Below, piece by piece: positions 1 to 16,144 of a DNA stretch of 16,144 bases (position 1 is its first letter; each line of letters begins with the position of its first letter). Position numbers and translations under genes: made by a program. Source of the stretch: a virus; UHGV virus genome UHGV-0251712; one strand, given 5' to 3'. The notes under the pieces were generated by a model. That model had not been told where the DNA came from, made no database searches, and was given only the letters and a program-made list of their open reading frames with translations.

Positions 1-346
1 CAGCCTCTATGAACTTCGCGGCGGTTTCCTGATTCAGCTCCTTCGGGATGATATGCCCACGGCACAGCGTGCTGAAATTGCTCTGCATCCGGTTACGCTC
101 CTTCGTCGTCTTGGTCAGGTAGAGGTAGCAGGTGTGCTTCAGGTACGGACGGACGGCAAAGCCGGACTGATAGAGCGTTACTTCTCGCTCATGCCCGAAG
201 GCGACACGACCTTGCAGGACATTGACCTCTCGGCGAGGGAAATGCGCATCGGCGACAACCGCCTGTGCCTGCACACCCTGTCCGACGCGGAAGACCTGAT
301 TAAAAGCGCTCATAACACATCTGTCGGCCAGAAGGCGCGCCTCTGA
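1..346 (+). CDS. 3' part of an unidentified protein-coding gene; reading frame is open to the left window edge
   Basis: Frame of ORF 53..346 has no stop back to position 2, so the gene probably starts outside the window. Stop TGA at 344-346. No family recognised. Its last 16 codons lie inside the left arm of the 65-bp inverted repeat. Confidence 0.3.
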   Translation, partial: SLYELRGGFLIQLLRDDMPTAQRAEIALHPVTLLRRLGQVEVAGVLQVRTDGKAGLIERYFSLMPEGDTTLQDIDLSAREMRIGDNRLCLHTLSDAEDLIKSAHNTSVGQKARL

Positions 347-516
347 GTTATCCGACGGACATACCGGGAACAGTGTAATTTCCCGGCAGGAGCGAAAAAT
401 TTGAAAGGCGCATCTTACTCTTTTCGCTTTCAAAAAAAGAGTGGTCTTCGCGTCAACACACATGTCCGTCGGATAACTCAGAGGCGCGCCTTCTGGCCGA
501 CAGATGTGTTATGAGC
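298..516. repeat. Perfect 65-bp inverted repeat (arms 298-362 and 452-516) separated by an 89-bp spacer
   Basis: Reverse complement of 298-362 is identical to 452-516 when compared base by base; mismatches flank both ends. Spacer contains a smaller hairpin (ccgggaa...ttcccgg, about 364-386). Confidence 0.9.
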
Positions 517-563
517 GCTTTTAATCTTCATTACGGAGTTTCTGCGTGCGTGCCGATAAGTCA

Positions 564-1043
564 TTAAGCCCGTTTGAAATCCGGGTATACCGCCATAACC
601 GCATTGTGCATGGTACTCGGGTCGCGCTGGCATTCCTGCTCACTTTTCTCATTATCCGCCTGTTTACTATCCCGGAAAGCACCTTCCTGCAAGAGGCTAT
701 TAAAGAACTGATACCAGGGTTTAGCAAAATCATCACCGACTACACGAGCTACCGCCACCGCATACTGACCACCTGAAATTTCTGTCAAAATGACGCCCTC
801 ACTGTTTTCGGGAAGCGTAAAGTAACCCGGCACCGTCACGACGGTGTCGCAGCGTAATTTTTCGGCGGGTGTTTCATCTGGATTGTCGTAATAGACAGCA
901 ACCCACTCCTTCGGCACAATATTTTTGCTATCTACCCACATCATCAACTGCTCAAAGCCTTTCTTTACCGTCTGTTCCCACGGGCCAACGAGATGGAAAC
1001 CTGCAACGGTACGTTTCTCTTCCTGCTTAATCTCGTAGTTCAT
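564..1043 (-). CDS. sbmC: DNA gyrase inhibitor SbmC/GyrI (GyrI-like domain protein)
   Basis: Translation begins [71 protein letters not shown], which I recognise as E. coli SbmC. Position next to dacD matches the K-12 order, and a LexA box sits just upstream. The C-terminal ~40 residues were not verified. Confidence 0.8.
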
Positions 1044-1057
1044 GACGCCTCCATTAA

Positions 1058-1077
1058 TACTGTTTTTATATACAGTA
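1058..1077 (-). promoter_or_regulatory. LexA (SOS) box upstream of sbmC
   Basis: Sequence tactgtttttatatacagta fits the CTGT-N8-ACAG consensus, 15 bp upstream of the sbmC start codon; sbmC is a known SOS-regulated gene. Confidence 0.7.
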
Positions 1078-1161
1078 TAATTGCAAAATTAAAACCACAA
1101 GGAATGAGTGTTGATTATGCGAGCAGACTCGCACTCCTGCCAGTCTGCTGCAAAAGAAAGG

Positions 1162-2334
1162 TCAGGCCTTATGGTGGAAATAATCACTCAGGCGAGAAAA
1201 CATGCTGCCTTCCCCGACAGATTCCAGGGTAACCAGCGGCCAGTGCGCCACCTGTTTATCACGGTCGTAAAGTTCAATTTCCCCTACCCGCTGATGGGCG
1301 CTAATTGGCGCGGTGAGTTCTTTACCATCAAGGGTATATTTGGCTTTGATATGTGGAATTTCGGCTTTCGGTAGCACCATCCAGAACTCTTGTTCCGTTC
1401 CCAGGGCGATATTTTCTTTATCGCCATACCAGATGCGTTCCGTACCGACCTTTTTCCCACGGTGCAAAATTTGCACCGTAGTAAAGTTTTGTTGCCCCCA
1501 ACGCAGTAATTTTCTTGCCTCTTCCTCACGACCTTTTGCGCTGTCAGCACCCATTACCACTGCAATGAGACGACGCTGCCCATCTACAGCCGAAGCAATG
1601 AGATTAAACCCGGCACCAGAAGTATGACCCGTTTTCAGGCCGTCAACATTCATGGTTTTATCCCACAATAACCCGTTACGGTTTTGCTGGGTGATACCGT
1701 TCCAGGTGAGGCTTTTCTCACTGTACATATGATAAAACTCGGGCTCGCCGTGGATGATAGCACGAGAAAGCACAGCTAAATCATAAGCCGAGCTATGCTG
1801 GCCAGGTGCATCCAGACCATACACTGTTTCAAAATGCGTATCCTTGAGATGCAGCTTCTCGGCATAGTTGTTCATCATTTCAACAAACTGCCGTTGCCCA
1901 CCGGCAATATAGTCAGCCAGAGCAACACAAGCGTCATTTCCGGAATCCACAATTAAACCACGGCTTAAATCACGTACCGATACGCGATCGCCCTCTTTCA
2001 AAAACATCAGTGAAGAACCGACAAACACCGGATTATCTTTCGCCCACGCATCGCGCCCCACGGTGACAATATCGTCTGGCGTAATGCGATGACTATCGAT
2101 AGCGCGATCCACGACATAACCCGTCATCAGCTTTGTCAGGCTGGCGGGATTGCGCTGTTGATGCTCATTACCCGCGGTGAGGATCTGTCCGGTGGTGTAA
2201 TCCATCAGTACCCAGGACCCGGCATGAATCTCTGGAGGCTGAGGTGAAAAATGAATGTTTTCCGCCGCAAAACCAGACGATAAGTTAAAAACGAACAAAG
2301 AAGCAGCAATAATAAGACGGCGTTTCAACAGCAA
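1162..2334 (-). CDS. dacD: D-alanyl-D-alanine carboxypeptidase / penicillin-binding protein 6b (DacD)
   Basis: 390-aa ORF with signal-peptide-like N-terminus, SxxK motif (ASLTK), SGN and KTG motifs of class C low-molecular-weight PBPs; closely matches my recollection of E. coli DacD; adjacent to sbmC. Confidence 0.9.
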   Translation of the reverse strand: MLLKRRLIIAASLFVFNLSSGFAAENIHFSPQPPEIHAGSWVLMDYTTGQILTAGNEHQQRNPASLTKLMTGYVVDRAIDSHRITPDDIVTVGRDAWAKDNPVFVGSSLMFLKEGDRVSVRDLSRGLIVDSGNDACVALADYIAGGQRQFVEMMNNYAEKLHLKDTHFETVYGLDAPGQHSSAYDLAVLSRAIIHGEPEFYHMYSEKSLTWNGITQQNRNGLLWDKTMNVDGLKTGHTSGAGFNLIASAVDGQRRLIAVVMGADSAKGREEEARKLLRWGQQNFTTVQILHRGKKVGTERIWYGDKENIALGTEQEFWMVLPKAEIPHIKAKYTLDGKELTAPISAHQRVGEIELYDRDKQVAHWPLVTLESVGEGSMFSRLSDYFHHKA

Positions 2335-2536
2335 ACCCTCAGGAGTTTCAAATAGCTGTTCTTTTTACGGAAATACTTATGAACTGGCTGGAATAAAGTG
2401 CAAGAAAATGTGACTACCCTCGCATTTTTATCTGACATGATCTGTTGCCACTCGCTGTCAAATTGTTGCGCTAAAGCTGATTAGCACGGTGATATTTGAT
2501 ACTCTGGCAGACAGCAGAAATAACGGATTTAACCTA

Positions 2537-2584
2537 ATGATGAATGACGGTAAGCAACAATCTACCTTTTTGTTTCACGATTAC
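2537..2584 (+). pseudogene. sbcB: 5' fragment of sbcB (exonuclease I): first 16 codons only
   Basis: Translation MMNDGKQQSTFLFHDY matches the N-terminus of E. coli exonuclease I as I recall it (continues ETFGTHPALD in the intact protein). Here it continues AQHP and stops. Divergent orientation from dacD matches K-12. Confidence 0.6.
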
Positions 2585-3205
2585 GCGCAACACCCCTGAG
2601 AACCGCCATGAACAAGGGTTTCATGATTTGTGATTTTAGTTTGGTACGCAATTTGGTACACAACACAATTTTCACTTCAGCGGGTAGTCATCAAACTCAC
2701 CATAACGAGCATCGTTAATGATGTATGTGATCACCACAAACATCACATCTGGACTAGTTCCGCTTTCATGCGCAGGTATTTGTTCACGCCTCCCTTTCTG
2801 CAAATCATAAAGATGAGATTTTGGGGTTTTGGGATATCTTTTATCCGCAGTTCTCTATCCATTATGCAAACCAGTAATGAACCATCACCGTGTGATAGTG
2901 AGGCATCTGCCACGATAAGCGCAGAGAAATGATGCAGTGGTGGGCGGACTGGATTGATGAGAAGGTGGAGTGAACCACCTTAACCACTATCGAAGAGCAC
3001 AAAGCCTTGCAATCCAGTACAAAACTTTGTTTGTCTCATCAACTACCGCAAGTATCGATCGATGGAGCCTTGGATGATAGAATAAATTCGTAGCACTTTT
3101 TTTTAAAGTATCATCTCGCTCATGGTTACGTGATAGAAAAAGGACAAAATAATCTTAAATTTAAAAGCATATAAATCATACAAATAAAATTGTGGTGGGT
3201 GCGTA

Positions 3206-4204
3206 ATGTCTGATATTCGACAAAATAGAATAGAGTTAAATGAAGTGCATATAGCTCGCTCCATGGCTATATTTCTAGTTGTTTTACTTCATTCTTCAGG
3301 TGCTTTTTTTATGCAGTTTGGAGATCATTGGTGGATTGTTAATTTATACAGTTCTTTTTCAAGGCAGTGTATAGGTCTTTTTTTTCTTATCACTGGATAC
3401 CTATTTTATGAAAAAAACATAAACCCAACAGCACACCTAAAAAAAGGAGTGTCGAGATTGATAATACCATTCATATTTTGGTGGGTGGTATATTATATCT
3501 ACAATACAGAGATTAACAACAAATCATATAATTCTATATTTCAACCAAGTGAGGTACACCTTTGGTTTATGTATGCATATATTTGTATATATATGTTTTT
3601 ACCAATAATTTGCAACTCATTAAAACACATACCAACATATTACATTTTAATTATTGTAAGCATGCTTTTTTACTCAAATTCCATTGTCCCTGTAGTTGAT
3701 AAAACGATAATGAAGGTAACATGGTTTGATGTAAAACTAGTGTCTGAAAATGGGATATATATTCTTATTGGGGCAATAATAAGGAGATATAACGATAAAA
3801 TAAAAAAATGCAATGCAGTGATACCATTGGTGATTATTGTTATGTCGTGCCTGTTAACATCAATGGCATCTAGTTGGTGGTCTGAAATAACAGGCAGGCC
3901 TGAGCAGTTTTTCTTTAAAAATACATCTCCACTTGTATTAATATGTGTTATTTCTTCATTTACATTATGCATGTCATACTCAAAAATAATTAGCAAAAGA
4001 TTAATGAATTTATTTACATCAATATCAAATGTTTCATTTGGTATATACTTCGTCCATTTCTTTTTTGTTAGAGAAATTAGACTCGGGTATAATCAAGAAA
4101 ACGCATATTTCATGATACCATTGCTAACAATCATTTATTTTTTAATGTCATATTGCATATCAATAATTCTAAGCAAGATCCCTTTGCTTAGAAAAGTAAT
4201 ATAA
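3206..4204 (+). CDS. Acyltransferase family 3 integral membrane protein, probable phage-encoded O-antigen O-acetyltransferase (Oac-like)
   Basis: 332 aa, highly hydrophobic with many predicted transmembrane segments. N-terminal pattern R-x-E-L-N...A-R-S-M-A-I-F-L-V-V-L-L-H resembles the acyltransferase-3 signature. Strongly AT-rich relative to neighbours. Convergent with and abutting the tailspike gene, as in Sf6-like phages. Confidence 0.7.
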   Translation: MSDIRQNRIELNEVHIARSMAIFLVVLLHSSGAFFMQFGDHWWIVNLYSSFSRQCIGLFFLITGYLFYEKNINPTAHLKKGVSRLIIPFIFWWVVYYIYNTEINNKSYNSIFQPSEVHLWFMYAYICIYMFLPIICNSLKHIPTYYILIIVSMLFYSNSIVPVVDKTIMKVTWFDVKLVSENGIYILIGAIIRRYNDKIKKCNAVIPLVIIVMSCLLTSMASSWWSEITGRPEQFFFKNTSPLVLICVISSFTLCMSYSKIISKRLMNLFTSISNVSFGIYFVHFFFVREIRLGYNQENAYFMIPLLTIIYFLMSYCISIILSKIPLLRKVI

Positions 4205-6451
4205 TTATGGATTGTTAACCTTCCATCTTTTATCATAGTAATGCAAATATCCCTGAGACGTTAGTGTCATATGGACAATCGCTTGGGATATTTGCGCGTT
4301 CTGAAAATTAACTCTAATAAATACTTGAGTGCCAATTGTTATTTTTGATACAGATATCCCGTCAAGAGTCTTGTCTCCTTGTATTTTATTAACCCAAACA
4401 CCTGACGAAGACAAGGTTGCCTGATCCTTTCCGCTTATACTAAATATAATTTTACCTCCTGTTGCCAGTGAGGTGTTTACTCCATTTTGAGATATTGGAA
4501 TTATTGTAATTTCACCAGCAATGAAAACACCATTTTTGTATTTAGATACCTCACCTTGTTCACAAATTAAAATATCAATACATCTACCCCATGGTACTAG
4601 GATTGTTGCATTTTCAGTTTTTACTTGTGGATATACAGCTGAAACACCTGCAGATTCGAAATTTTTTGCTGATAAAACAACTCCGTCAGATCCATTTCTA
4701 AATCCCATTCCTGTATGATCACCGTATGTCCTTCCATGAGAGATGAATCCTCTTACATACTCTTCGGATACTGCGCTACCAGTGGTTTCCTTCTGAAAGA
4801 TAAATGTTTCACCAAAAGAAAAACCACGACATTGGTATTGGCTCTGATAATTTTCTGAGTTCTTAAAAAAGGAAATGCCTTTATATGCTGTTACATAGCC
4901 AGATCTAAATTGAACGGAAACAGGGGTTGTTTGTTCATCTGGAGGTAACTCCACAAAATGTGTAACATTTTGGCTGTTTGATTCCTGTAACCATACAGAA
5001 ACACCATCTATAATCATGGTTGAAAATCTACTGTTTATTTCTAACTCAGAAAAATCAAGAACATGATCACCTGTAACACCCTCAACTCCAAACCCATCAA
5101 TACTTAAAGACCTGAACTGATAGAATTTATGCGGTAACTCACAACCATCAGCTGCAATATTCATTGCGCTAGTGTACATTAATGGGTAAGGACTTATAAT
5201 TGGTTCATATGTTTCTCTATCTATTGCAGCCCCCCAAAGATACCCAACATTACAATGTCTTGCCCAGTTGGAAGAGAATGTAGTAGATGTGCCAGCCAAA
5301 CCGAAACCATAGATACAATCATATGCTTGGTTGTTTGTAACATTACTGACAAAGCATGATAAGGGAAGTGCAAATTTATAATGTAGAAATATGTTATTTT
5401 TAATATCATATTCACTACCCCCGCCAAAGGTTTGTGTTTGACCAGAAATGGCCAATGGGCTACCTGAATATTCATCGTCAGCGTTGCGAAAACACATATT
5501 CTTTACTTTAAGATTGTGCCCCCAACTTCCCATAACAAAACCACCACTTCCTGATGTATAAACAATACTTTTTTGTGGATTAATCCCATATAGATTTAGA
5601 CTAATCCCTTCCCATCTAAACTGGCTAATGTCAATTTGAGTGTTACCAATATATATAGGCTGGTCTATGAAAACAGGAAGTTTAGTTAGATAAGCTTTAT
5701 TAAGTGCTAATCCATCATTTGTTACACCTGTTAAATCAACGCCCCCCATGCTTGGCGCTCTAGGATACCCTGTGGCCTGAATAGTACTCCAGTCAATATA
5801 TGGAGCATCCATCCACGCTCCAAACATACGTGGTGTTACGTACCCCTTACCTTGAAGATCACGTTTCCAGCGTTTACCACCCACAGTGACAATGACCATG
5901 CCGTTATCATCTGCAGAAGTAGAATCTGTGAAATCGGCCACAAACAGACCACCACCAGTATCACCTGATACTGTCGGCTTCATGCCTGTAGTGTGGAAGT
6001 CGACGAAAATCTTTTGCTGATCTCGCTCAGGCTCAATTGTCCTTAACATTGCTATATCAGGGCATGTCCCGATGTATTTAAGACCGTCTTCCCCTGATAG
6101 AGATACTTTAAGCTGATCAGGATCATATTTAAGAACATTCGGAAAATAGAACTGCTGTGCACCATATGCATCATAAACAGCCATAGAATGGCCTTGCACA
6201 GTTACGAACTTGGCAATCTGTCCGTTATATACCGGATATCCAGCAGCGTTAATGATGATTGGTTGCGAAACAGGAACGCGAGAACCGTCTTCATTCTCCA
6301 CATAAACCTGAATCTGGTTTTCAGGATTTACCGGGTCAGTGTCAATTTTACCGATATAAATTTTGCCATTGGCTACGGCTTTAAAAGAACGAGCCATAGT
6401 GAAGAGTTGCGAAGGCATGCTTACCACAACATTTGCGGTGATATCTGACAT
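4205..6451 (-). CDS. P22-like tailspike protein (gene 9 homologue) with conserved head-binding N-terminal domain and divergent receptor-binding domain
   Basis: From the internal Met, [43 protein letters not shown]...VLKYDPDQ aligns with the P22 tailspike N-terminal domain ([43 protein letters not shown]). A GGAG ribosome-binding site sits 7 nt upstream of the ATG at 6449-6451. The ORF-track start at 6499 is probably an upstream extension. Confidence 0.85.
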
Positions 6452-6572
6452 TTCATTGCTCCAGACGAATGATATGATGCAACCATGATGTGATTGCATA
6501 CCGAAATGGTACTATTGAGTATTTATCCAGTAGGTTACGATGCCATTCCACCCAACTGGTGAGGCATCAAGG

Positions 6573-6833
6573 ATGTACAGCAAATACGACGAGGCGCAGT
6601 TTCACTTGAGACTTCCGCATGAACTCCACGCGAAAATTAAGCAGCGTGCGAAGATGAATAACAGGTCGCTGAACTCAGAGATAATTGCAGCGATTGAAGA
6701 ATCATTGGCTAAACAAAGCTCTGCATCTGTTTACATTGACGATGCAGAGCGTATGGCAGAACAACAATCTGATATGGTTAAGAAAATTGTCTTTGATACG
6801 CTCAAGGAGCTATATAAAAAAGACAGCAGCTAA
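6573..6833 (+). CDS. mnt: Mnt-like ribbon-helix-helix repressor (P22 immI region)
   Basis: QFHLRLPHELHAKIKQRAKMNNRSLNSEII...DDAERMAEQQSDMVKKIVFDTLKELYKK aligns with P22 Mnt (HFNFRMPMEVREKLKFRAEANGRSMNSELL...NDAERLADEQSELVKKMVFDTLKDLYKK). AAGGA ribosome-binding site before the ATG at 6573. Divergent from the tailspike gene. Confidence 0.75.
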   Translation: MYSKYDEAQFHLRLPHELHAKIKQRAKMNNRSLNSEIIAAIEESLAKQSSASVYIDDAERMAEQQSDMVKKIVFDTLKELYKKDSS

Positions 6834-6922
6834 CCATCAGTTACGGAGGATTTATGCAAAGAGATATGCTGAACATTGCGTTCTACATATTTGGTTTTTG
6901 CACGTTCCTGGTGTTTGCGAAG

Positions 6923-9316
6923 CTATTCTGACAACGCATCAGACTTGGCACCCTGAGTAAGGGCGTTAATGGCCTTTTGCGCCTGCTGCATGGCTTTCTC
7001 AAACGCTGTTGATCCGCGTGGGGTGTTTGCCATTCGGAGCATTGCATTTCTGAATGGCTCGCTCTCATAGGCGCGAGTAAGAAGTCCGTAGCTTACTGCT
7101 GCGCCAGTTGTCGCCGGGTTCATTGCCGTCCCATATCCGATAATGAACGGGATGGTTTGCTGCCCTGTTGGTGTTGTTACTGCCGCTTTTGCTGCCTGCT
7201 GAGTGGACTGAAGGTAGTTTTTCAATCCTTTCAGATAAGCGGCTTCCTGACCTTTAAATGTGATGCCAGTCTGGTTTTGCAGGATGTTAAGCTGTCGAAG
7301 GAACTGGTCAGGTGAACCACCTGATTTCTCTATCGCCTTTCCAATAATGCCATTGCGCATTTGCGCTCTTCCAACGCGACCAACTGAGTTATACAGCGTC
7401 TTAATTTCCGATTTGTTCTTGCTGAATAGCATGTTGTTGACAACTTCCGGCGTCAGGTCGCCTTTCATGAGAACATTCTTCAGCCTGGTATTCTTTAGTT
7501 TCGCCGCTTCGTCAGCGTATACGGCATTGGCCTGCTGATATTTACGGAGAGTATCGTTGCCAAGATTCTGACCAATGGCACCATTGATATCGTCTGTCAT
7601 CGCCTTGTAAACGCGCTGAATGGCAGCATCGGAACGGTTTGGTAACACTGGTCGTTCACCCTTCACGTCCATTCTGAACTGGCTGCGCAGATCGCTTAAT
7701 TGCTTCAAATCCAGATTTACCGGACCATCAGGACCAGCATTGCGAACAAGCTCATCACGATATGACTGAAGTTTTGAAATAGTCTCGTTATCAGCAACCT
7801 TACCAAGCTTCTGCAGGTTAGATATTTCTGTATCAATCTGCTGAATTGCTCGCGCAGGCTGAATGTTTACTCCAGCCATAGCATTCTGAACCTGCTCCAG
7901 TCGATTACCGGCGGCACGACGAATTCCTGATGTTTTCGCTTTAAGGCTGTCAATAACAACAGATGGATCATACTCACCGAATTTATCAGCAAATCTCTGC
8001 ACCAACTGGCTTCTCGCTTCCTGTTGCGTTGCTCTCATTCCGCTTGTGCCAGCCAGAGGAATATTTTCTGCTGTAGTCTGCGCCATTTTTCCGACGCGGG
8101 AAGTAGGCTGTAACAGGTCTGTGGTGTGCAGAGGAACTCCTTCACGCTCTGCAAATCTGATAGCTTGCTGTGCTTCTGGCGCGATAGCACCACGAACGCC
8201 ACGATAAGCAGCACCTAATCCACGTCCGGCAGCGTTAATAGCACCGCCAGCAAGTACACCAACGCCTAAATCGGTGGCGAGTGCTTCCGCATCATCTTTC
8301 GCACTATTTGCAGCAAGTGATCCAACTGCGTTTTCTGCTAGAAGGCGAGTTGCCCCCTGAGCAATTCGACCAGCAAGTGTTGGTGCCTGTGCTGCCGCTC
8401 TCTCAACGCCAGCAGGAGTGAGGTAAGGCAATGCTTCAGCAAATACCCTTCCCTCTGTCGTTTGTGGAGTCAGCGCGCCTTGCCGAAGGCCAAAGTCCCG
8501 CTCTAATCCCTGCGTTGTTACTCGTGGTGCTGGTTGATATGTACCATCGCCAATGCCGAGTTTACCGCCAGCCCAAGCCGCCGCGCTTGTTACAGCATCA
8601 GTGAGTTCAGCAGGTATGTTCGCTACGTTGATTCCTGCCTGTAGTATGCCGCGCCCGGTTTCAGCAAGTCCATTACCAAGGTCAGACATTATTCCGCCTT
8701 GCTGCTGAACAGGTTTCGGTGCGACAGAACTTACGGGTTGAGGTGGCTGCTGACTGGCTGCCTGCTGCTCAATCTGAGCAAATGGATTATTTGGGTCTGA
8801 CTGCACACCTGATGCCGATACTTGTTCGGATGACTGTACTTCCAGTTGTGCAAACGGGTTGTTAGGGTCTTGCTGAGGATGTACCTTTGCAGAGGTGGCG
8901 CGCTGTTCGACTGTTGAGTCTGTCACCGGGTCACCCGCCCATTGAGCAAAGCGATCATCAACGTAACCGCGGCCTTCAGGTCCTGGCGTATATTCACCAC
9001 GCTTTGCCTTCATAACGTTGCCGGGACCGTCGTGATAAGCCTGAAGAGCGTCACGCCAGTTACCAAACTGCTGGTACATCTTTGCCAGATAGCGCGCGCC
9101 AGCGTCAGCCTGATATTCGGGGTTTTGCATTTGCTCATCGGTATAACCCATATCACGCCATGTCCCAGGCATGACCTGAGTCAATCCTACAGCCCCGGCG
9201 GAGCTTACTGCGGCAGGGTTGTAAGAAGACTCCTTGGCACCCAGTGCAGTCATCAACCCTTCTGGCACACCGTAACGTGCGCCAGCCTGCTCTAACAAAT
9301 CACGGTAATTAGCCAT
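6923..9316 (-). CDS. Phage ejection/injection (internal virion) protein with N-terminal lytic transglycosylase-like domain
   Basis: 797 aa. N-terminus (GVPEGLMTALGAKESSYNPAAVSSAGAVGLTQVMPGTW) resembles the SLT-domain catalytic region (E-S...GLMQ pattern). Start ATG immediately follows the stop of the upstream 443-aa gene. Sits between the ejection genes and the mnt/tailspike region, like P22 gene 16. Confidence 0.65.
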   Translation of the reverse strand: MANYRDLLEQAGARYGVPEGLMTALGAKESSYNPAAVSSAGAVGLTQVMPGTWRDMGYTDEQMQNPEYQADAGARYLAKMYQQFGNWRDALQAYHDGPGNVMKAKRGEYTPGPEGRGYVDDRFAQWAGDPVTDSTVEQRATSAKVHPQQDPNNPFAQLEVQSSEQVSASGVQSDPNNPFAQIEQQAASQQPPQPVSSVAPKPVQQQGGIMSDLGNGLAETGRGILQAGINVANIPAELTDAVTSAAAWAGGKLGIGDGTYQPAPRVTTQGLERDFGLRQGALTPQTTEGRVFAEALPYLTPAGVERAAAQAPTLAGRIAQGATRLLAENAVGSLAANSAKDDAEALATDLGVGVLAGGAINAAGRGLGAAYRGVRGAIAPEAQQAIRFAEREGVPLHTTDLLQPTSRVGKMAQTTAENIPLAGTSGMRATQQEARSQLVQRFADKFGEYDPSVVIDSLKAKTSGIRRAAGNRLEQVQNAMAGVNIQPARAIQQIDTEISNLQKLGKVADNETISKLQSYRDELVRNAGPDGPVNLDLKQLSDLRSQFRMDVKGERPVLPNRSDAAIQRVYKAMTDDINGAIGQNLGNDTLRKYQQANAVYADEAAKLKNTRLKNVLMKGDLTPEVVNNMLFSKNKSEIKTLYNSVGRVGRAQMRNGIIGKAIEKSGGSPDQFLRQLNILQNQTGITFKGQEAAYLKGLKNYLQSTQQAAKAAVTTPTGQQTIPFIIGYGTAMNPATTGAAVSYGLLTRAYESEPFRNAMLRMANTPRGSTAFEKAMQQAQKAINALTQGAKSDALSE

Positions 9317-10648
9317 TTACTGCCCCAAAGATGGAAGATATCCGTAGCGATTAATGAAGTCGATTGACAGCTCGGGGTGCTGCTTCAGGTAATCTATAGA
9401 AGCCTGAGGCGCTTCCACTCGCTTGATACCGTTTTGCTGAACGTACTTACCAACCGCCTCATTACGCTTCTGGTTGAGCGTGTTCAGGATGACGCCAGCG
9501 TTGCGACGAAAGGACTCCTCGCTCTGCGAGTTCTGCAGCGAACCAACAGCCTGGTCGAGCTTTTTGCCCTCGGCATCAGAAAGTGCGCCCATGCCTCGCA
9601 TGGCCTGAACCGCTGTCAGGTATGCTTGGGATTTAAAGGTATCAAGTCGTGCCTGAGTGTCTGCAGCCTGTGAGCCTGGAACGTTGGGGATTACTCCACG
9701 TAAGCCTGTAATGCTCTTAAGTGAAGGAGAACTAACGATATCGTTCAGAGTGAACATGCTGGTTGTGAGGGTGTTGATGCCGTCTTTGTAGCCATCATTT
9801 AGCGCTTGCTGCTTCTGCTGCAACTGCTGGTTGTTGGCTGCTATGCGGCTCTGTATTTCCTGGCGCTTCAGGTCGTTAGTTTCTGCTGATAGCATCCGGT
9901 CAAGGCGCTTATTTTCGTTGTTAATGCGGTTTGTTTCTGCGTCCAGATTAATGCGCTGCTGACCTAAATTCGCCTGGATATCTTGCCCGCGCATTGTGAT
10001 TGCCTGATTCCGAGCGGCGGTTTGCGAATCCAGATCCTGACCGCGCATGGTAACCTGGCGACCCTGCATTTTATCCTGTAGGTCAAAGTATTTTTCGGGT
10101 CCGAGACTGTTCATCCCCAGGTGATCGACAAATTCGCCGAACTGCCGCGGGTTCTGTTGGTACATCTGAGCGACATCCTGAGGATTAACGCCAACACGAG
10201 CTAACTCACCGGCGTTGTTTTGCAGCCATGATTGCATTGCTTCTGGAGACGATGACGCAAGGCGTGCGCCAGCCGCTAAGGTGCCGATAGAATTACGCTG
10301 ATCTTCATCAATGAATCCCATGCCTTTACGAACGGATTCAATCTGTTCTGGATATTGAGTAGCCAACTGACGCAAAGCACCGCGATCACCAGACGCATAA
10401 GCATTAGCGTATGCCTGCTGAAATTCTTTCTGCCGCTGAGCCTGCTTTTCCTGCTGAAACACCCCCGCAATACCTGAAAGGCCTTGCAAAGCAGTCAGCC
10501 CAACATTGTTAGCGCCTGAACGCTCAATATCATTGTTCTGCCTGATAAGCTGAAGCGTATTGCCGATGTCATTTACGCTCGGAGCGTTTGAGTTGACGCC
10601 GCCGATACCAGCCAACAATCCGCCGTTTGTTCCTTGCCAAGTAGCCAT
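9317..10648 (-). CDS. Phage ejection/DNA-transfer protein (P22 gene 20-like)
   Basis: 443 aa, Q/N/A-rich low-complexity with coiled-coil character; in operon with and immediately upstream of the 797-aa protein; size and context fit P22-like gp20. Family assignment is by context only. Confidence 0.55.
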   Translation of the reverse strand: MATWQGTNGGLLAGIGGVNSNAPSVNDIGNTLQLIRQNNDIERSGANNVGLTALQGLSGIAGVFQQEKQAQRQKEFQQAYANAYASGDRGALRQLATQYPEQIESVRKGMGFIDEDQRNSIGTLAAGARLASSSPEAMQSWLQNNAGELARVGVNPQDVAQMYQQNPRQFGEFVDHLGMNSLGPEKYFDLQDKMQGRQVTMRGQDLDSQTAARNQAITMRGQDIQANLGQQRINLDAETNRINNENKRLDRMLSAETNDLKRQEIQSRIAANNQQLQQKQQALNDGYKDGINTLTTSMFTLNDIVSSPSLKSITGLRGVIPNVPGSQAADTQARLDTFKSQAYLTAVQAMRGMGALSDAEGKKLDQAVGSLQNSQSEESFRRNAGVILNTLNQKRNEAVGKYVQQNGIKRVEAPQASIDYLKQHPELSIDFINRYGYLPSLGQ

Positions 10649-10657
10649 GATTACCCC

Positions 10658-10855
10658 TTAAAACAACGAGCCAAGCAATCCGATACCAGCACCAATGCCA
10701 GCGCCCCAAGGCGTTGATGTTCCCAAAAGGCTGGCAAGACCTGCACCGGCAATCGCACCAGACGTGCCACCGCTAATTGCAGTCTGAAGACTTGATGGTT
10801 TAACCAAAGAGTAGTTGGCTTTGGGGTGACGTGAAGTGCAGCTGCACGACGGCAA
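10658..10855 (-). CDS. Small Gly/Ala-rich ORF, possibly the 3' remnant of an upstream ejection-protein gene (gene 7-like) truncated by a deletion joint
   Basis: 65-aa ORF ending 9 bp before the 443-aa gene. Hydrophobic Gly/Ala-rich C-terminus. Begins at a TTG inside the region occupied on the other strand by the ssb fragment, so its 5' end is unlikely to be native. Confidence 0.3.
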
Positions 10856-11267
10856 CCTGACAATAGCAACGTCAGAACAATGGCGAGATAAAAATACTGG
10901 CGAGCAAAAGGAATTGACTGAATGGCATCGTGTTGCTGTATCCGGGAAACTGGCTGAGGTCGTGGGGCAGTATGTGAAAAAAGGTGATCAGATTTATTTC
11001 GAGGGAATGCTGAGAACCAGAAAGTGGAAAGACCAGTCAGGGCAAGACCGTTACACAACCGAGGTTCATGTCGGAATTAATGGCGTGATGCAAATGCTTG
11101 GCGGCATTGGCGACAGCAAACAACAAGCAGCCAGCAGGCAATCACAGAAGCCACAGCAGCAATCATCACCAGCACAACACAACGAACCTCCGATGGATTT
11201 TGACGACGATATACCCTTTGCACCAGTAACTCTCCCCTTCCCTCGTCACGCTATTCACGCAATTTAA
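10830..11267 (+). pseudogene. ssb: Single-stranded DNA-binding protein gene (ssb), 5'-truncated and with a C-terminal extension beyond the DDDIPF tip
   Basis: Translation [22 protein letters not shown]...[54 protein letters not shown]...[10 protein letters not shown] aligns with E. coli SSB from about residue 30 onward. The N-terminal ~30 residues are absent (in-frame stop at 10827-10829). After DDDIPF there is no stop and the frame continues 15 codons. Confidence 0.75.
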
Positions 11268-11280
11268 TCAGGAGAAAATC

Positions 11281-11577
11281 ATGCCAGCGCCTCAGTATGG
11301 TGCGGATGACCCGCGCCGCTGTTCCGGCAATTCCGTATCGGAGGTGCTGGATAAATTCAGAAAAAACTACGACCGGATAATGTCGCTACCGCAGGAAACA
11401 AAAGAGGAAAAGGAATTTCGCCACTGTATATGGCTTGCAGAGAAAGAAGAACGAGAGCGAATTTACCAGACATCAATCCGACCATTCCGCAAAGCCACAT
11501 ATACCCACTTCCCTGAATATATCGACCCGCGCCTGCGTAATTACCGCTCACGCTATGGCTCTATCAGTAATGACTGA
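11281..11577 (+). CDS. Hypothetical prophage early-region protein
   Basis: 98-aa ORF with AGGAG ribosome-binding site 7 nt upstream; tightly packed in the early operon after ssb. No family recognised. Confidence 0.45.
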
Positions 11578-11587
11578 GGAATTTACC

Positions 11588-11755
11588 ATGAGAGGACTTG
11601 CATACAATCCCGGCATTCTTCCGGCAGAAATGATTATTCGCCAACGCGTAAAGCCAATGCCATCGAGAGAGGAATTGCTTAAGAGAAATTCTTTTCCGTC
11701 AGTAAATCAAAACAAATATCTGAATGCGATGTGGCGTAAAGGAGGCAAGCAGTGA
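11588..11755 (+). CDS. Hypothetical small protein (55 aa)
   Basis: ATG at 11588 preceded by GAGG, follows the previous gene closely, and its stop overlaps the next start. The longer ORF-track version from 11435 overlaps the preceding gene and is less likely. Confidence 0.3.
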
Positions 11756-12051
11756 GTGTATGTCTTATTGATAAACGTCGACGTGGGCAACAAATACCAT
11801 CTGTTGGAATGCCGAATCACACATGGTTTTGCGTACTTGATATCGATGGTATGGATGCGTTGGTTGACACTCGTCATTACTGCGATACCGCAACAGCTAC
11901 TCCGGCGAAAGCAAAGAAAATGGCTGCTCTGATAGAAAACTGGACTCCACCTGATGGTTGGTGCAATGGGAATGATCGAGATTGGCACGAAAAAATGAAG
12001 GGCTATATCTGCGATTTTTTACGTAAATGCAACGGATTCAGGGTGATGTGA
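11752..12051 (+). CDS. Hypothetical prophage early-region protein (GTG start)
   Basis: 99-aa ORF; GTG start 6 nt after a GGAGG ribosome-binding site; overlaps the upstream stop. No family recognised. Confidence 0.4.
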
Positions 12052-12052
12052 C

Positions 12053-12742
12053 ATGAGCAAGATTGCCTATCAGGCACTGCGTGAAAAGGCAGAGAAAGCA
12101 ACGTGTGGTGTGTGGTCGCTCGAATATGGAGAGGGCCGATTTGATGGTGATGATGCGCTAATTCATCGTGAAGTTGCTGGATATATTCCCATTTGCAGAA
12201 TTGAAGGAGCGCATCCTGAAAGCGGTTTCGATGAAGATTTCCAAATGGAACAGCAGGCCAATGCTGAATTCATCGCAGCAGCCAGTCCAGCTACCGTGCT
12301 GGCACTACTGGATGAACGGGAAAGAAACCAGCAGTACATCAAACGCCGCGACCAGGAGAACGAAGATATTGCGCTAACGGTAGGGAAGCTGCGTGTTGAT
12401 CTGGAAGCCGCAGAGAAGCGCAACGCAAAATTACAAAGCGAGAATGCATACATCCGCAACAGGTACAAAGAACTGGACCTATTAATCGGGAAAAACATTC
12501 TGGTCATGCAGGCTGCCATTATCGAATGGCAATCTACTGGCGACGCTAAAAGCGGACTGGCATGGATTTATAACACACTGTTTGGCCCAGGCGAATTGCC
12601 GGACGAATCTGAGAAAGATGCTCAGGCCTACTTTAATCGCAAAAATGAACCGATTGACGAAAAGCTTATGGAGCTTCACAAGTGGTTTTGGGAACAAAGT
12701 GAAGCCGAGCGTGTCGCTGGCATTCGCATCAAAGGAGAGTGA
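12053..12742 (+). CDS. Ead/Ea22-like family protein (lambdoid early-left accessory protein)
   Basis: 229 aa with a central coiled-coil-like segment; N-terminus MSKIAYQALREKAEK... resembles proteins annotated Ead/Ea22-like in enterobacterial prophages (recollection, not searched); position in the early-left region. Confidence 0.5.
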   Translation: MSKIAYQALREKAEKATCGVWSLEYGEGRFDGDDALIHREVAGYIPICRIEGAHPESGFDEDFQMEQQANAEFIAAASPATVLALLDERERNQQYIKRRDQENEDIALTVGKLRVDLEAAEKRNAKLQSENAYIRNRYKELDLLIGKNILVMQAAIIEWQSTGDAKSGLAWIYNTLFGPGELPDESEKDAQAYFNRKNEPIDEKLMELHKWFWEQSEAERVAGIRIKGE

Positions 12743-12743
12743 T

Positions 12744-12941
12744 ATGGATAAAAACACCACTGCTTACTGGAATCTGTCACTTGATACCGAATGCCCAAAA
12801 TGCGGTCACAATTTCGATCTGCTTTGTGACGCTGATTTCTGGGAGTTTTCTGGAGCTAAACAGGCATGTGAAGAAATAAAAGGTTACAAAACATGCTGTC
12901 CGGAATGTAACCATGAATTTAAAACAGATTTCATATATTGA
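12744..12941 (+). CDS. Small zinc-ribbon protein
   Basis: 65 aa with CPKCG...CCPEC (two CxxC pairs). ATG overlaps the Ead stop (TGATATG) with an AAAGGAGAG ribosome-binding site upstream. Confidence 0.5.
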   Translation: MDKNTTAYWNLSLDTECPKCGHNFDLLCDADFWEFSGAKQACEEIKGYKTCCPECNHEFKTDFIY

Positions 12942-12951
12942 GGCATAACAA

Positions 12952-13398
12952 ATGACCACTATTACCAAAGAACGTATTGAATTGTTCATTAAAAATCCGC
13001 TTGAAAACGGGCTTACTCGTGGCGAACAAATGGAACTGGCACGAATTGCACTGGCATCACTGGAACGCGAACTGATTCGCCACGAGCATGCCAAATGGTC
13101 TGACTCCACATTTGGCTGCGTTGGCCCCATTGGTCCACTGAAACACCTCTCAAAAGAGACACTGGAAGCCGCAGCCGAACCAGACGATCTTAGCGAGTGG
13201 GCTGATATGCAGTTTCTGTTGTGGGATGCACAGCGCCGTGCTGGCATCAGCGATGCTGAAATTACCGCTGCTATGGAAGATAAATTGAAGATCAACATGG
13301 AGCGCCAGTGGCCTGAGCCAAAAGATGGTGAGCCTCGCTTGCACATTAAAGAACTCGGCAACTCTCCGGTAATTCCGGATGGTTCGGATGATGGTTAA
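12952..13398 (+). CDS. MazG-like nucleotide pyrophosphohydrolase-like protein (DUF550-like)
   Basis: 148 aa; segments HLSKETLEAAAE and DLSEWADMQFLLWDAQRRAG resemble the paired E-rich helices of MazG/HisE-type all-alpha NTP pyrophosphohydrolases. Assignment by motif resemblance only. Confidence 0.45.
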   Translation: MTTITKERIELFIKNPLENGLTRGEQMELARIALASLERELIRHEHAKWSDSTFGCVGPIGPLKHLSKETLEAAAEPDDLSEWADMQFLLWDAQRRAGISDAEITAAMEDKLKINMERQWPEPKDGEPRLHIKELGNSPVIPDGSDDG

Positions 13399-13433
13399 CC
13401 ATTTTTGATGTAAAAACATCCTTCTCTGAGGGC

Positions 13434-13462
13434 TTGCTCCTCAATAAGTTTGGTTTTATAAT
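13434..13462 (+). promoter_or_regulatory. Candidate sigma70 promoter for the NYN gene (TTGCTC - 17 bp - TATAAT)
   Basis: Perfect -10 hexamer TATAAT at 13457-13462 with TTGCTC 17 bp upstream, in the 149-bp gap before the NYN ORF. Sequence-only prediction. Confidence 0.3.
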
Positions 13463-13547
13463 TACGCGCAATGAAGGTGGGCGGTTCGCTACTATACAAG
13501 AGGGGTGTACCCCGCGAACTTAACCCACCACCACTTTCCTCTCTACT

Positions 13548-14195
13548 ATGAATTGCAAATCAATGACCAGAAAATATGCCATCATGATCGATGCTGGTTT
13601 TTTGCGTGCAAAATTAGGCACAAAAGATAAGCCAATCGATGCGGAAGTAATCAAAGTATTTGTAGAAAAACTAACAAAAAGGCATGAACTAGAAGGCATG
13701 ATTTTGCACCGTGTTTATTATTACGATGCAGAGCCGCTTACCGGAATACAGACGCATCCGATTAGTGGAGAGAAAATTGACTTCTCTGAAACAGAAGTTT
13801 CTAAAAGAAATAAAGCCATGCTTGATGAGTTGAAAAGAACTCCTTTTTTTGCAGTAAGACTTGGAGAGACAAACTTTCGAGGATGGAAGGTTGACCCATG
13901 GGCATTAAAGAGCAGTGACTCTAAAACTTCTTCCATTAATGCCTACAATGTTAAGCCTAATGTTCAGCAGAAAGGCGTTGATATGCGTATTGCGTTAGAT
14001 ATGTCATCAATGTCATTAAAAAAACAGGCAGATATATATGCTTTGGTGACTGGTGATTCAGATTTTGTTCCAATTATAAAATTTGCTAGGAAAGAAGGCC
14101 GACAGATTTTTCTATACACACTGGGACATAGTGTCAAGCAGACGATGTATGAACATTCCGATTTGTTAGTGCCAGATACCATGGATAAATTGTGA
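13548..14195 (+). CDS. NYN-domain (PIN-like, LabA/limkain-b1-type) predicted ribonuclease
   Basis: 215 aa with NYN hallmarks: N-terminal YAIMIDAGF, central KGVDMRIALDM, and C-terminal ALVTGDSDFVPIIKFARKEGRQIF (the typical GDxDF...G block). AT-rich relative to flanking phage genes. True start may be the ATG at 13563. Confidence 0.65.
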   Translation: MNCKSMTRKYAIMIDAGFLRAKLGTKDKPIDAEVIKVFVEKLTKRHELEGMILHRVYYYDAEPLTGIQTHPISGEKIDFSETEVSKRNKAMLDELKRTPFFAVRLGETNFRGWKVDPWALKSSDSKTSSINAYNVKPNVQQKGVDMRIALDMSSMSLKKQADIYALVTGDSDFVPIIKFARKEGRQIFLYTLGHSVKQTMYEHSDLLVPDTMDKL

Positions 14196-14374
14196 TTGGA
14201 GCTAGGAATAGGTTAGCCGCGCCTTAATAGATGATCCATTCTGGCAGAAAAAGAACACAAAGAAGTAGCCTAAGTGCCCCCAACTGCATTTACACCCAGG
14301 CCCTCATTGCGGGTCTTTCTATTTACAGAGATGGCTGAGCAGAACGCCAAGAACTGACAACCTGAACGAATACG

Positions 14375-14400
14375 AACCCGCCTAGTGCGGGTTTTCTTTT
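14375..14400 (+). terminator. Rho-independent terminator (stem aacccgc/gcgggtt plus T-run)
   Basis: 7-bp GC-rich stem with 5-nt loop followed by TTCTTTT. Confidence 0.65.
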
Positions 14401-14406
14401 ATCTGA

Positions 14407-14430
14407 ACTCGCTACGGCGAGTTTTGTTTT
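14407..14430 (+). terminator. Second tandem rho-independent terminator (stem actcgc/gcgagt plus T-run)
   Basis: 6-bp stem with 4-nt loop followed by TTTTGTTTT. Confidence 0.55.
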
Positions 14431-14442
14431 ATGGAGATGATT

Positions 14443-14742
14443 ATGGCCTGTTCAACATTCAACCATTTAACGTTACAGAAATACCAGCCAGACCCTGAAG
14501 ATTTATGCTCACTGTGTGGCGGAAATCATGGTAAAGCCGCCATGATCGAATGTAAGGACAAAATCCACATTTGCCTTAATTGCGTTGATGTCCTCGTTGA
14601 TATCAAAAATGAGAGAGAAGATAAAAAGCGTAGCGAGGCTATTCGCGCATTAGATTCATGGATGCGAGATGGGTATAGTGCTGCGCAAATTTATGACTTC
14701 GCAATATCAAAAGGCGAAATACCAGGAGTGCGCATCGAATAA
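14443..14742 (+). CDS. Small zinc-ribbon protein bounded by terminators
   Basis: CSLCGG...C...CLNC cysteine pattern. Start chosen at the ATG at 14443 because GGAG lies 6 nt upstream; the ORF track starts at 14431, which abuts the terminator T-run. Confidence 0.45.
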   Translation: MACSTFNHLTLQKYQPDPEDLCSLCGGNHGKAAMIECKDKIHICLNCVDVLVDIKNEREDKKRSEAIRALDSWMRDGYSAAQIYDFAISKGEIPGVRIE

Positions 14743-14782
14743 GACGTAACCAATATTCGAATTGAAGAACTGAAAGAACACC

Positions 14783-14809
14783 AAGCCGCCTGATGGCGGT
14801 TTCTTTTTG
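14783..14809 (+). terminator. Rho-independent terminator (stem aagccgcc/ggcgguu plus T-run)
   Basis: GC-rich hairpin followed by TTCTTTTT immediately after the zinc-ribbon ORF. Confidence 0.6.
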
Positions 14810-14822
14810 CCTGGAGAATTAA

Positions 14823-14927
14823 GATGACCGATACCAGCCTGATTCCTGAGAAAGAAGTGATGAACAAGCTCGGTGTTTCATCACGTCAGACAATCTGGAA
14901 CTATACCAAACGGCACGGATGGATATA
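14823..14927 (+). pseudogene. AlpA/excisionase-family helix-turn-helix gene, 3'-truncated (34 codons)
   Basis: MTDTSLIPEKEVMNKLGVSSRQTIWNYTKRHG fits the AlpA/Xis-type HTH pattern (L-x-x-x-E-V...G-x-S-R-x-T-I-x). Intact members run about 60-70 aa. Here the frame ends WI-stop inside the 36-bp inverted-repeat copy that starts at 14917. Confidence 0.5.
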
Positions 14928-14952
14928 GGTTACTGGCGAACACATGATTTCA
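14917..14952. repeat. Left copy of perfect 36-bp inverted repeat bracketing the integrase 3' segment
   Basis: ggatggatataggttactggcgaacacatgatttca is exactly the reverse complement of 15154-15189, with mismatches immediately outside both ends. Confidence 0.9.
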
Positions 14953-15140
14953 GAAGAACGCTTGTTACACGTCTGTCCGAGATGAATGTCGAGCCTCATG
15001 TTACTGAGCGAATGCTCGGTCATGAACTTGGCGGGATAATGTCCGTATACAATAAACACGATTGGATAGAGGCTCAGCGCAAAGCGTATGAGCTTCACGC
15101 TGATAAATTGTTCTGGCACATCAGGAGCATTTCTGATTAA
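14919..15140 (+). pseudogene. Detached C-terminal segment of a tyrosine integrase, inverted relative to the rest of the gene
   Basis: MDIGYWRTHDFRRTLVTRLSEMNVEPHVTERMLGHELGGIMSVYNKHDWIEAQRKAYELHADKLFW carries the H-x-x-R and catalytic Tyr region. Its first 11 residues duplicate the last residues of the minus-strand integrase ORF. Confidence 0.8.
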
Positions 15141-15148
15141 CGCCACCG

Positions 15149-16144
15149 TTAAGTGAAATCATGTGTTCGCCAGTAACCTATATCCATCCCTCCCCTTATT
15201 CTATTTACGAATCGGTTGGCTGCAGCGATGCTGATCGGTTTGTTTATGTCTTCTCCAGGGAAAAGAACATCATTGTACGTTGTCATGGCCTTATCGAGGA
15301 AAGGCTTAATTTGTTCGAAGATTGGACGGCGGATAACATTACCCATCTTGCTATGCTCTTTCGGTACGGTCCATACGTTGTCCAGCAGGTCAAATTCTGT
15401 CTTTGTTGCCAGCCTAAGCTCTGAGAGCCTCGCCCCCCACAGCATAAGCATCTGATGAAGGAGCTTATTTGACGTAGACGCACGGCTTCTTTCAATAGCA
15501 AGCCAAATCTTAGCCAGTTCGTGATACGACAGTACCCGATCCCCTACCTCAGCGCGGGAGCCGAAGTCCCTTGGCTGGATGCTCATAATTGCGCAACTAT
15601 CTATCAACTGACGCCGCATGCACCAACTAATTGCTGATCTTAGTTGACTTAGCACCTGCCTTGCTCGGCGTGGATTATCTTTTTCTTCTTCGGTAAGCAG
15701 GTCAACCCATTGCTTAACCGTGATAGAAGATGCCGGACGATTAGGAAAGGCGTCATGCATGCGCTTCATAACCGTTGATCGGTAAAGTGCCTGGGTCTTT
15801 TCTCTGAGAGTTGTAGAGACGTAGTTGTCGAACCAGTAGTCGAGACACTGGGCGACCGTCATGGAGTTCTCCACCTTCTCTTCAAAATAAGTGCGTGGAT
15901 CCGTTCCTGAGAAATAGAGCTTTCGCAAGTCAGCAGTGATCTGTCTGGCATCCTTCAAAGACAGGGATGGGTATCGACCAAGCCCAAGTCGATTAGGCTT
16001 GCCATGCCAGCGATAGCGGTACTGGAACTGGATGACCCCCTTCGGTGAAATTCGTACGCTGAGGCCATCGGCATCAGCCACTTCTTGTGGGCCCGAATAT
16101 GGTTTACCATAAATAGTACGCAGTTTTGTGTCGCTTATAGCCAT
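15149..16144 (-). CDS. P4-type tyrosine integrase, N-terminal 330 codons; truncated before the catalytic Tyr
   Basis: N-terminus has the arm-binding pattern of P4-family integrases (GLSVRISPKGVIQFQYRYRWHGKPNRLGLGRYPSLSLKDAR). ORF ends ...GGMDIGYWRTHDFT-stop at the right copy of the 36-bp repeat. Start codon is the last 3 bases of the window. Confidence 0.8.
   Translation of the reverse strand: MAISDTKLRTIYGKPYSGPQEVADADGLSVRISPKGVIQFQYRYRWHGKPNRLGLGRYPSLSLKDARQITADLRKLYFSGTDPRTYFEEKVENSMTVAQCLDYWFDNYVSTTLREKTQALYRSTVMKRMHDAFPNRPASSITVKQWVDLLTEEEKDNPRRARQVLSQLRSAISWCMRRQLIDSCAIMSIQPRDFGSRAEVGDRVLSYHELAKIWLAIERSRASTSNKLLHQMLMLWGARLSELRLATKTEFDLLDNVWTVPKEHSKMGNVIRRPIFEQIKPFLDKAMTTYNDVLFPGEDINKPISIAAANRFVNRIRGGMDIGYWRTHDFT
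15154..15189. repeat. Right copy of perfect 36-bp inverted repeat
   Basis: Reverse complement identical to 14917-14952. Confidence 0.9.

Follow-up and report, generated by a model that had tools for sequence, protein, structure and literature searches.

The first part of the UHGV virus genome UHGV-0251712, analysed here as a window of 16,144 nt (the whole stretch of DNA under study), contains a long and perfect inverted repeat. This locus raises the question of whether such a repeat is a functional element, the trace of a rearrangement in a living cell or a product of the way in which the sequence was made. The two arms (298-362 and 462-526) are 65 nt long, 100% complementary and separated by a 99-nt spacer at 363-461. 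The perfect 65-bp repeat that had been described from the letters of the window was re-derived by a second script, although its end and spacer, earlier given as 516 and 89, were both 10 too small. In dinucleotide-preserving shuffles of the window (n = 30), the longest perfect inverted repeat within 2 kb measures 11-16 nt, and the expected number of 65-nt inverted pairs is ~2e-32. The repeat cannot have arisen by chance.

As single-stranded DNA, positions 290-535 have a predicted folding energy of -102.5 kcal/mol, compared with -31.0 +/- 3.6 kcal/mol for shuffled sequences (z = -19.9). The large hairpin or cruciform proposed in the sequence-only reading is upheld to the extent that this predicted fold is very stable. 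The potential is real on paper, but it is a by-product of the join described below and does not speak for a function. A search of the repeat region against Rfam returns no family at E <= 1, and positions 250-720 contain neither terminator-like nor promoter-like sites.

Composition of the left end

The left end was mapped using an intact E. coli locus as the reference (L001, NCTC11476), in which the gene order is yeeA, sbmC, dacD, sbcB. The first 297 nt were aligned with a Parabacteroides distasonis plasmid (L010) that carries traG on its minus strand. Together, these alignments divide the left end into the following features:

1-151, minus strand: Bacteroidales conjugative-transposon traG fragment, antisense (3-151 corresponds to L010 3001-3149, 92.6%)
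152-297, plus strand: second traG fragment, sense, from ~230 nt away in the same gene (161-298 corresponds to L010 2909->2772, opposite strand)
298-461, plus strand: forward yeeA-sbmC intergenic DNA in its native orientation relative to sbmC and dacD, comprising the left arm and the spacer (100% identical to L001 3001-3164)
298-362, no strand: left arm of the 65-nt perfect inverted repeat (computed; an independent script agrees)
462-526, no strand: right arm, which opens the inverted segment (computed, and aligned to L001)
462-684, minus strand: inverted copy of L001 2843-3065 (running 3065->2843), 223 nt, comprising intergenic DNA and the first 139 nt of yeeA (99.6% identity)
685-1043, minus strand: sbmC without its last 115 nt (L001 3294-3652; native sbmC occupies 3179-3652)

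The repeat exists because a forward and an inverted piece of one locus overlap by 65 nt. Native positions 3001-3065 occur twice, in opposite orientations, and form the arms, and native positions 3066-3164 form the spacer. In the intact locus, the arm sequence is intergenic and lies 20-84 nt upstream of the yeeA start codon (coding sequence beginning at L001 2981), which is a GTG now located at window position 546 on the plus strand. Each arm is a copy of this native yeeA-sbmC intergenic DNA, and the right arm is not the inverted duplicate of a gene 3' end that it had been taken for. Position 298 is the left limit of the arm only because the E. coli DNA meets an unrelated Bacteroidales traG fragment at this point, and a repeat of up to 223 nt would otherwise have been possible.

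To the right of the inverted copy, the window follows the reference forward again, with 677-2585 corresponding to L001 3286-5194. At sbmC, 129 nt have been lost, which are the last 14 nt of the intergenic region and the 3' end of the gene. The open reading frame at 564-1043 (minus strand) combines 119 codons of SbmC with 40 of junk sequence, and only residues 1-121 of its chimeric product match the GyrI-like domain. The repeat had been placed downstream of sbmC. It does adjoin this gene, but sbmC is not located upstream; it sits to the right on the minus strand (564-1043) and its own 3' end is missing.

The first 297 nt have a GC content of 0.59 and are ~92% identical to plasmids of Parabacteroides, Bacteroides and Phocaeicola; no complete E. 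coli genome matches them. The sense piece matches TIGR03783 (TraG family) with E = 4e-14 at profile positions 170-230, and the traG sequence is itself folded back at ~151|152. An open reading frame at 53-346 runs from the sense traG piece into the E. coli intergenic DNA and ends with a stop at 344-346, inside the left arm. The earlier statement that this arm holds the last 16 codons and the stop of an upstream gene is correct with regard to the stop codon. The reading frame is, however, no gene, and its final codons result from read-through out of the traG fragment; they do not form a gene 3' end.

The second fold-back and an intact relative

The sequence-only reading had pointed to a structure of the same type at the integrase, and a second fold-back is indeed present at 14917-15189. 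Two features describe this end of the window:

14917-15153, minus strand: second fold-back, an inverted copy of the xis/int 3' region (repeat search and comparison with L014)
15154-16144, minus strand: integrase gene shortened by 188 nt at its 3' end (331 of its 392 codons remain, followed by a stop in the inverted segment)

The comparison sequence, L014, is a contig of an E. coli isolate (GCA_024502405.1) found through a look-up of the window's 797-aa gp16-like protein. At 14920, after half of the xis-like gene, the forward sequence of the window gives way to an inverted copy that occupies 14917/14921-15153, and the forward orientation resumes at 15154. A second perfect inverted repeat of 36 nt results (14917-14952 with 15154-15189), and xis loses 62 nt at this fold-back. 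Positions 15154-16144 are 100% identical to L014 over 991 nt, and the integrase of L014 has its full 392 aa. Of 559 E. coli genomes with this integrase region, none shows the fold-back arrangement. The last bases of the window (16142-16144) are the integrase start codon. Since the window ends exactly there, its right boundary looks chosen at a gene edge and is probably no contig end.

The reverse complement of L014 aligns colinearly and without gaps to window positions 685-14908 and differs from them at 8 positions. These mismatches are all located in 1801-2467, and the following 12.4 kb (2468-14908) are identical. The genes sbmC (157 aa), yeeA, xis and int (392 aa) are intact in L014, and the window departs from the structure of this relative only at the sbmC and xis/int fold-backs. 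The mismatches are confined to dacD and its upstream flank, with five inside 1801-1821 and the others at 1948, 2422 and 2467. The DacD protein of the window carries a private H170Y, and neither its exact sequence nor the exact tailspike open reading frame is on record. The dacD differences suggest that a small patch was exchanged by recombination or that the identical prophage resides in another host strain. The strain of the host flank is absent from the databases searched, and the native comparison rests on other strains (8 differences from L014). The forward intergenic piece is identical to NCTC11476 and differs from L014 at 5 positions and by 1 indel. An origin of the short pieces in a different strain was considered on this basis and found uninformative, given that intergenic alleles vary by strain and both arms agree.

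L014 carries the identical defective prophage at the identical chromosomal site. From 2556 on, the window consists of a P22-like (Sf101-like) prophage whose insertion site is the start of sbcB, and the prophage/host junction is a stretch of 30 nt (2556-2585) common to the sbcB 5' end and the attachment region of Sf101-type phages. Integration into sbcB is also observed in strain ETEC1721 and in GCA_024502405.1. Two colinear prophage deletions (10802/10803 and 10853/10854) took out head, lysis, replication and immunity genes, and a 51-nt remnant of the immunity region (10803-10853) lies between a truncated gp7 gene and a truncated ssb gene. The break at 10802-10854 was evaluated as a further artefact and rejected, as it is base-for-base the same in GCA_024502405.1. 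Because they are shared with this relative, both deletions are real.

The prophage also encodes a 332-aa O-antigen-type acyltransferase (3206-4204) that is identical in hundreds of assemblies. In the assemblies read, its gene is located in P22-like prophages beside the bioA/ybhB region and not at sbcB. This shows an acyltransferase module that moves between prophages of different integration sites.

Junction anatomy and occurrence in other genomes

The joins in the window consist of five local strand flips (J1, J3, J4, J7 and J8) and one inter-phylum join (J2), and the short pieces have lengths of at least 151, 146, 164, 223 and ~237 nt. Each join is listed with the nucleotides shared by the two native sequences and the native distance spanned:

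J1, ~151|152: traG to opposite-strand traG; ~3 nt shared, as judged from a reference that is only 92% identical; span 231 nt
J2, 297|298: traG to E. coli; at most 1 nt shared; span not applicable, as the genomes are unrelated
J3, 461|462: E. coli forward to inverted; 0 nt shared; span 99 nt
J4, 684|685: E. coli inverted to forward; 0 nt shared; span 451 nt
J7, 14917-14920: forward to inverted; GGAT shared, 4 nt; span 299 nt
J8, 15153|15154: inverted to forward; 0 nt shared; span 201 nt

The native sequences at J3, J4 and J8 contain neither quasi-palindromes nor microhomology. None of the junctions is accompanied by a duplication of the target-site type, and the joins carry no adaptor remnants of TruSeq, Nextera, PacBio, ONT or 454 origin. 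The hexamer AAGCAC at 677-682 is common to both native sequences 3-8 nt before J4 and may be there by chance. It was not counted as microhomology for J4, being out of register with the break.

Searches of other genomes separate the single arm from the repeat. In 4,641-4,642 complete E. coli genomes, the median number of sites of the 65-nt arm is 1 per genome, whereas the 461|462 join, used as a 96-nt query in one piece, is found in 0 of 5,426 complete E. coli genomes. Comparison with related genomes had been proposed as a check on the repeat, and it yields one arm only, in continuous native sequence. The suggestion of a MITE-like element with other genomic copies fails on the single copy of the arm, and a common conserved intergenic element is excluded by the absence of the second arm from the 5,426 genomes. 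Exact 33- to 35-mers across J3 are absent from metagenome, viral and genome contigs, those across J2 from metagenome contigs, and those across J8 from genome and viral contigs. By exact look-up, the chimeric SbmC, chimeric Int and TraG-fusion proteins are not on record; for intact proteins nearby, entries exist in 459 and 36 blocks.

Origin of the joins

A native functional or mobile element could take the form of a terminator or attenuator hairpin, a REP or MITE-like sequence or an invertible switch. Such an element would account for a very stable predicted hairpin between convergent-looking open reading frames, and intrinsic terminators, REP elements and MITEs resemble the window repeat in being intergenic and having hairpin potential. 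These elements are, however, conserved at orthologous sites or present in multiple copies, whereas the arm in the window is single copy with its partner nowhere else, and a perfect 65-nt stem is far longer than those of terminators or REPs. The comparison with related genomes, in which the second arm is absent, refutes a native element. Specifically, a MITE or REP is contradicted by the lack of multiple copies and, in relatives, of paired arms or an empty site flanked by a duplication, and a structured RNA or intrinsic terminator by the lack of any Rfam match or terminator-like site (250-720). For an invertible switch, the second arm is missing from all 5,426 genomes and the prophage integrase is the only recombinase within 14 kb. 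The repeat also has no adjacent recombinase or transposase, no target-site duplication and no promoter-like sites, and its right arm merely continues into inverted yeeA coding sequence. The chance that the repeat is an element of this kind is close to negligible.

A genuine rearrangement in vivo would consist of templated inverted insertions that arise when replication switches template or when a break is repaired by fold-back, with one event at sbmC/yeeA, one at xis/int of a decaying prophage and Bacteroidales DNA captured at the same break. Each event has the form that templated-insertion repair gives, namely a forward segment, a nearby inverted copy and a further forward segment with a small deletion (129 nt in sbmC, 62 nt in xis). 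The prophage was also already degraded by the two real deletions that it shares with GCA_024502405.1. An inverted repeat with a 99-nt spacer is tolerable in E. coli, in which the SbcCD-dependent inviability of palindromes is relieved by spacers. This reading nevertheless has to place two events within 16 kb while leaving zero substitutions across the intervening 12.4 kb, and to add a third fold-back inside the other-phylum DNA that is fused to the first. It thereby needs three rare events and an inter-phylum capture in an otherwise unchanged stretch, with nothing alike in 5,426 complete genomes and with J3, J4 and J8 free of quasi-palindromes and microhomology. Fold-back duplications that form in vivo originate from short inverted repeats already present, extend over kilobases and raise copy number. 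In the window, by contrast, the inverted pieces measure 223 and 237 nt, the junctions are free of such repeats, native sequence has been lost and DNA of a foreign phylum is attached. What the window shares with the tandem inversion duplications of Salmonella and E. coli and with origin-dependent inverted-repeat amplification in yeast (PMC4689423) is the forward-inverted-forward order and asymmetric junctions with a spacer. The junction complementarity of a tandem inversion duplication is missing at J3, J4 and J8, and 129 and 62 nt are gone. Overall, an origin in vivo is considered unlikely. Its most specific version, in which a break beside the sbcB prophage of a living E. coli cell underwent homology-independent end joining with templated inverted insertions and captured a fragment of a Bacteroidales conjugative transposon, is highly unlikely.

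The inverted repeat is very probably an artefact of some kind, in a molecule or contig that became chimeric in vitro or in silico. Beside a shared mechanism, the sequence-only reading had allowed for an artefact common to both inverted repeats, and the evidence favours that option, as the fold-back signature recurs and intact relatives lack the joins. An artefact is indicated because the signature occurs three times in 16 kb, once inside other-phylum DNA fused to E. coli DNA; because the two E. coli events enclose 12.4 kb without a single substitution relative to the intact relative; because both repeats are perfect; and because no affected gene (sbmC, yeeA, xis, int) is left whole. Their perfect match, together with the alleles of the window itself that both repeats carry, indicates that the repeats were made recently and from one template. 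The presence of E. coli and Bacteroidales DNA in one molecule implies that the sample held both, as in a gut-type mixture. On these comparisons, the repeat is judged to belong to no living E. coli chromosome.

The process that we infer behind the repeat would join two overlapping pieces of one E. coli locus head-to-head (native 3001-3164 forward and 2843-3065 inverted). Most likely, a strand-displacing polymerase would have switched strands repeatedly in the course of amplification, with mis-joining during assembly, or ligation, as the alternative. Chimeras produced by phi29 polymerase are inverted with intervening deletions in >85% of cases (PMC1855051), and in phi29 amplification the chimeric distance peaks at 250-300 nt and chimeras can be multi-part (PMC4595205). 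The window resembles phi29/MDA chimeras (Lasken & Stockwell 2007, PMC1855051; Tu et al. 2015, PMC4595205) in its opposite-strand joins between sites a few hundred nt apart, its deletions, its multi-part build and its join to an unrelated molecule, which in those chimeras is occasional. The strand flips span 231, 99, 451, 299 and 201 nt between opposite strands, a range of 99-451 nt compared with the published peak of 250-300 nt, and all lie below the 10 kb within which the sequences joined in such chimeras count as nearby.

The junctions themselves agree less well with a polymerase. Proximal inverted joins made by phi29 show complementarity of at least 2 nt in 93.5% of cases (PMC1855051), and the complementarity is typically 5-8 nt (PMC4595205); nearly all published joins have 2-21 nt. 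The window, unlike these chimeras, has three blunt joins among its five local ones. If 6.5% of joins are blunt, as published, at least three blunt joins out of five have a probability of ~0.003, with J1 taken at the ~3 nt read from its 92% reference. With J3, J4 and J8 at 0 nt, strand switching by a polymerase fits the distances and not the junctions, and the blunt joins are easier to reconcile with ligation or with joining in silico. The preference for polymerase strand switching over ligation or assembly-level joining is consequently held only weakly. Two specific ways of joining were tried and rejected. Concatenation of read pairs, with each short piece being one read of a pair in its raw orientation, fits J1, J3 and J7 (implied fragments of 378 and 322 bp) but cannot make the down-to-up joins J4 and J8 and was therefore rejected as an account of all the joins. 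Proximity or restriction-site ligation was set aside because the native break points share no GATC, CATG, CCGG or AATT site; the CATG present at 461-464 was created by the join.

The biological weight of the repeat is small, as nothing conserved corresponds to it and it disrupts the neighbouring genes. The practical value of its recognition is that the window, and probably the source contig too, has chimeric ends. Whatever is inferred from the first 684 nt or from 14917-15189 would be unsafe, for instance a linkage of TraG with sbmC, a truncated SbmC or Int, or a giant hairpin. Should the joins nevertheless be real in vivo, they would document the homology-independent capture of Bacteroidales DNA by E. 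coli, and a break repaired in this way beside the sbcB prophage would directly record the capture of DNA from another phylum through illegitimate recombination in the gut.
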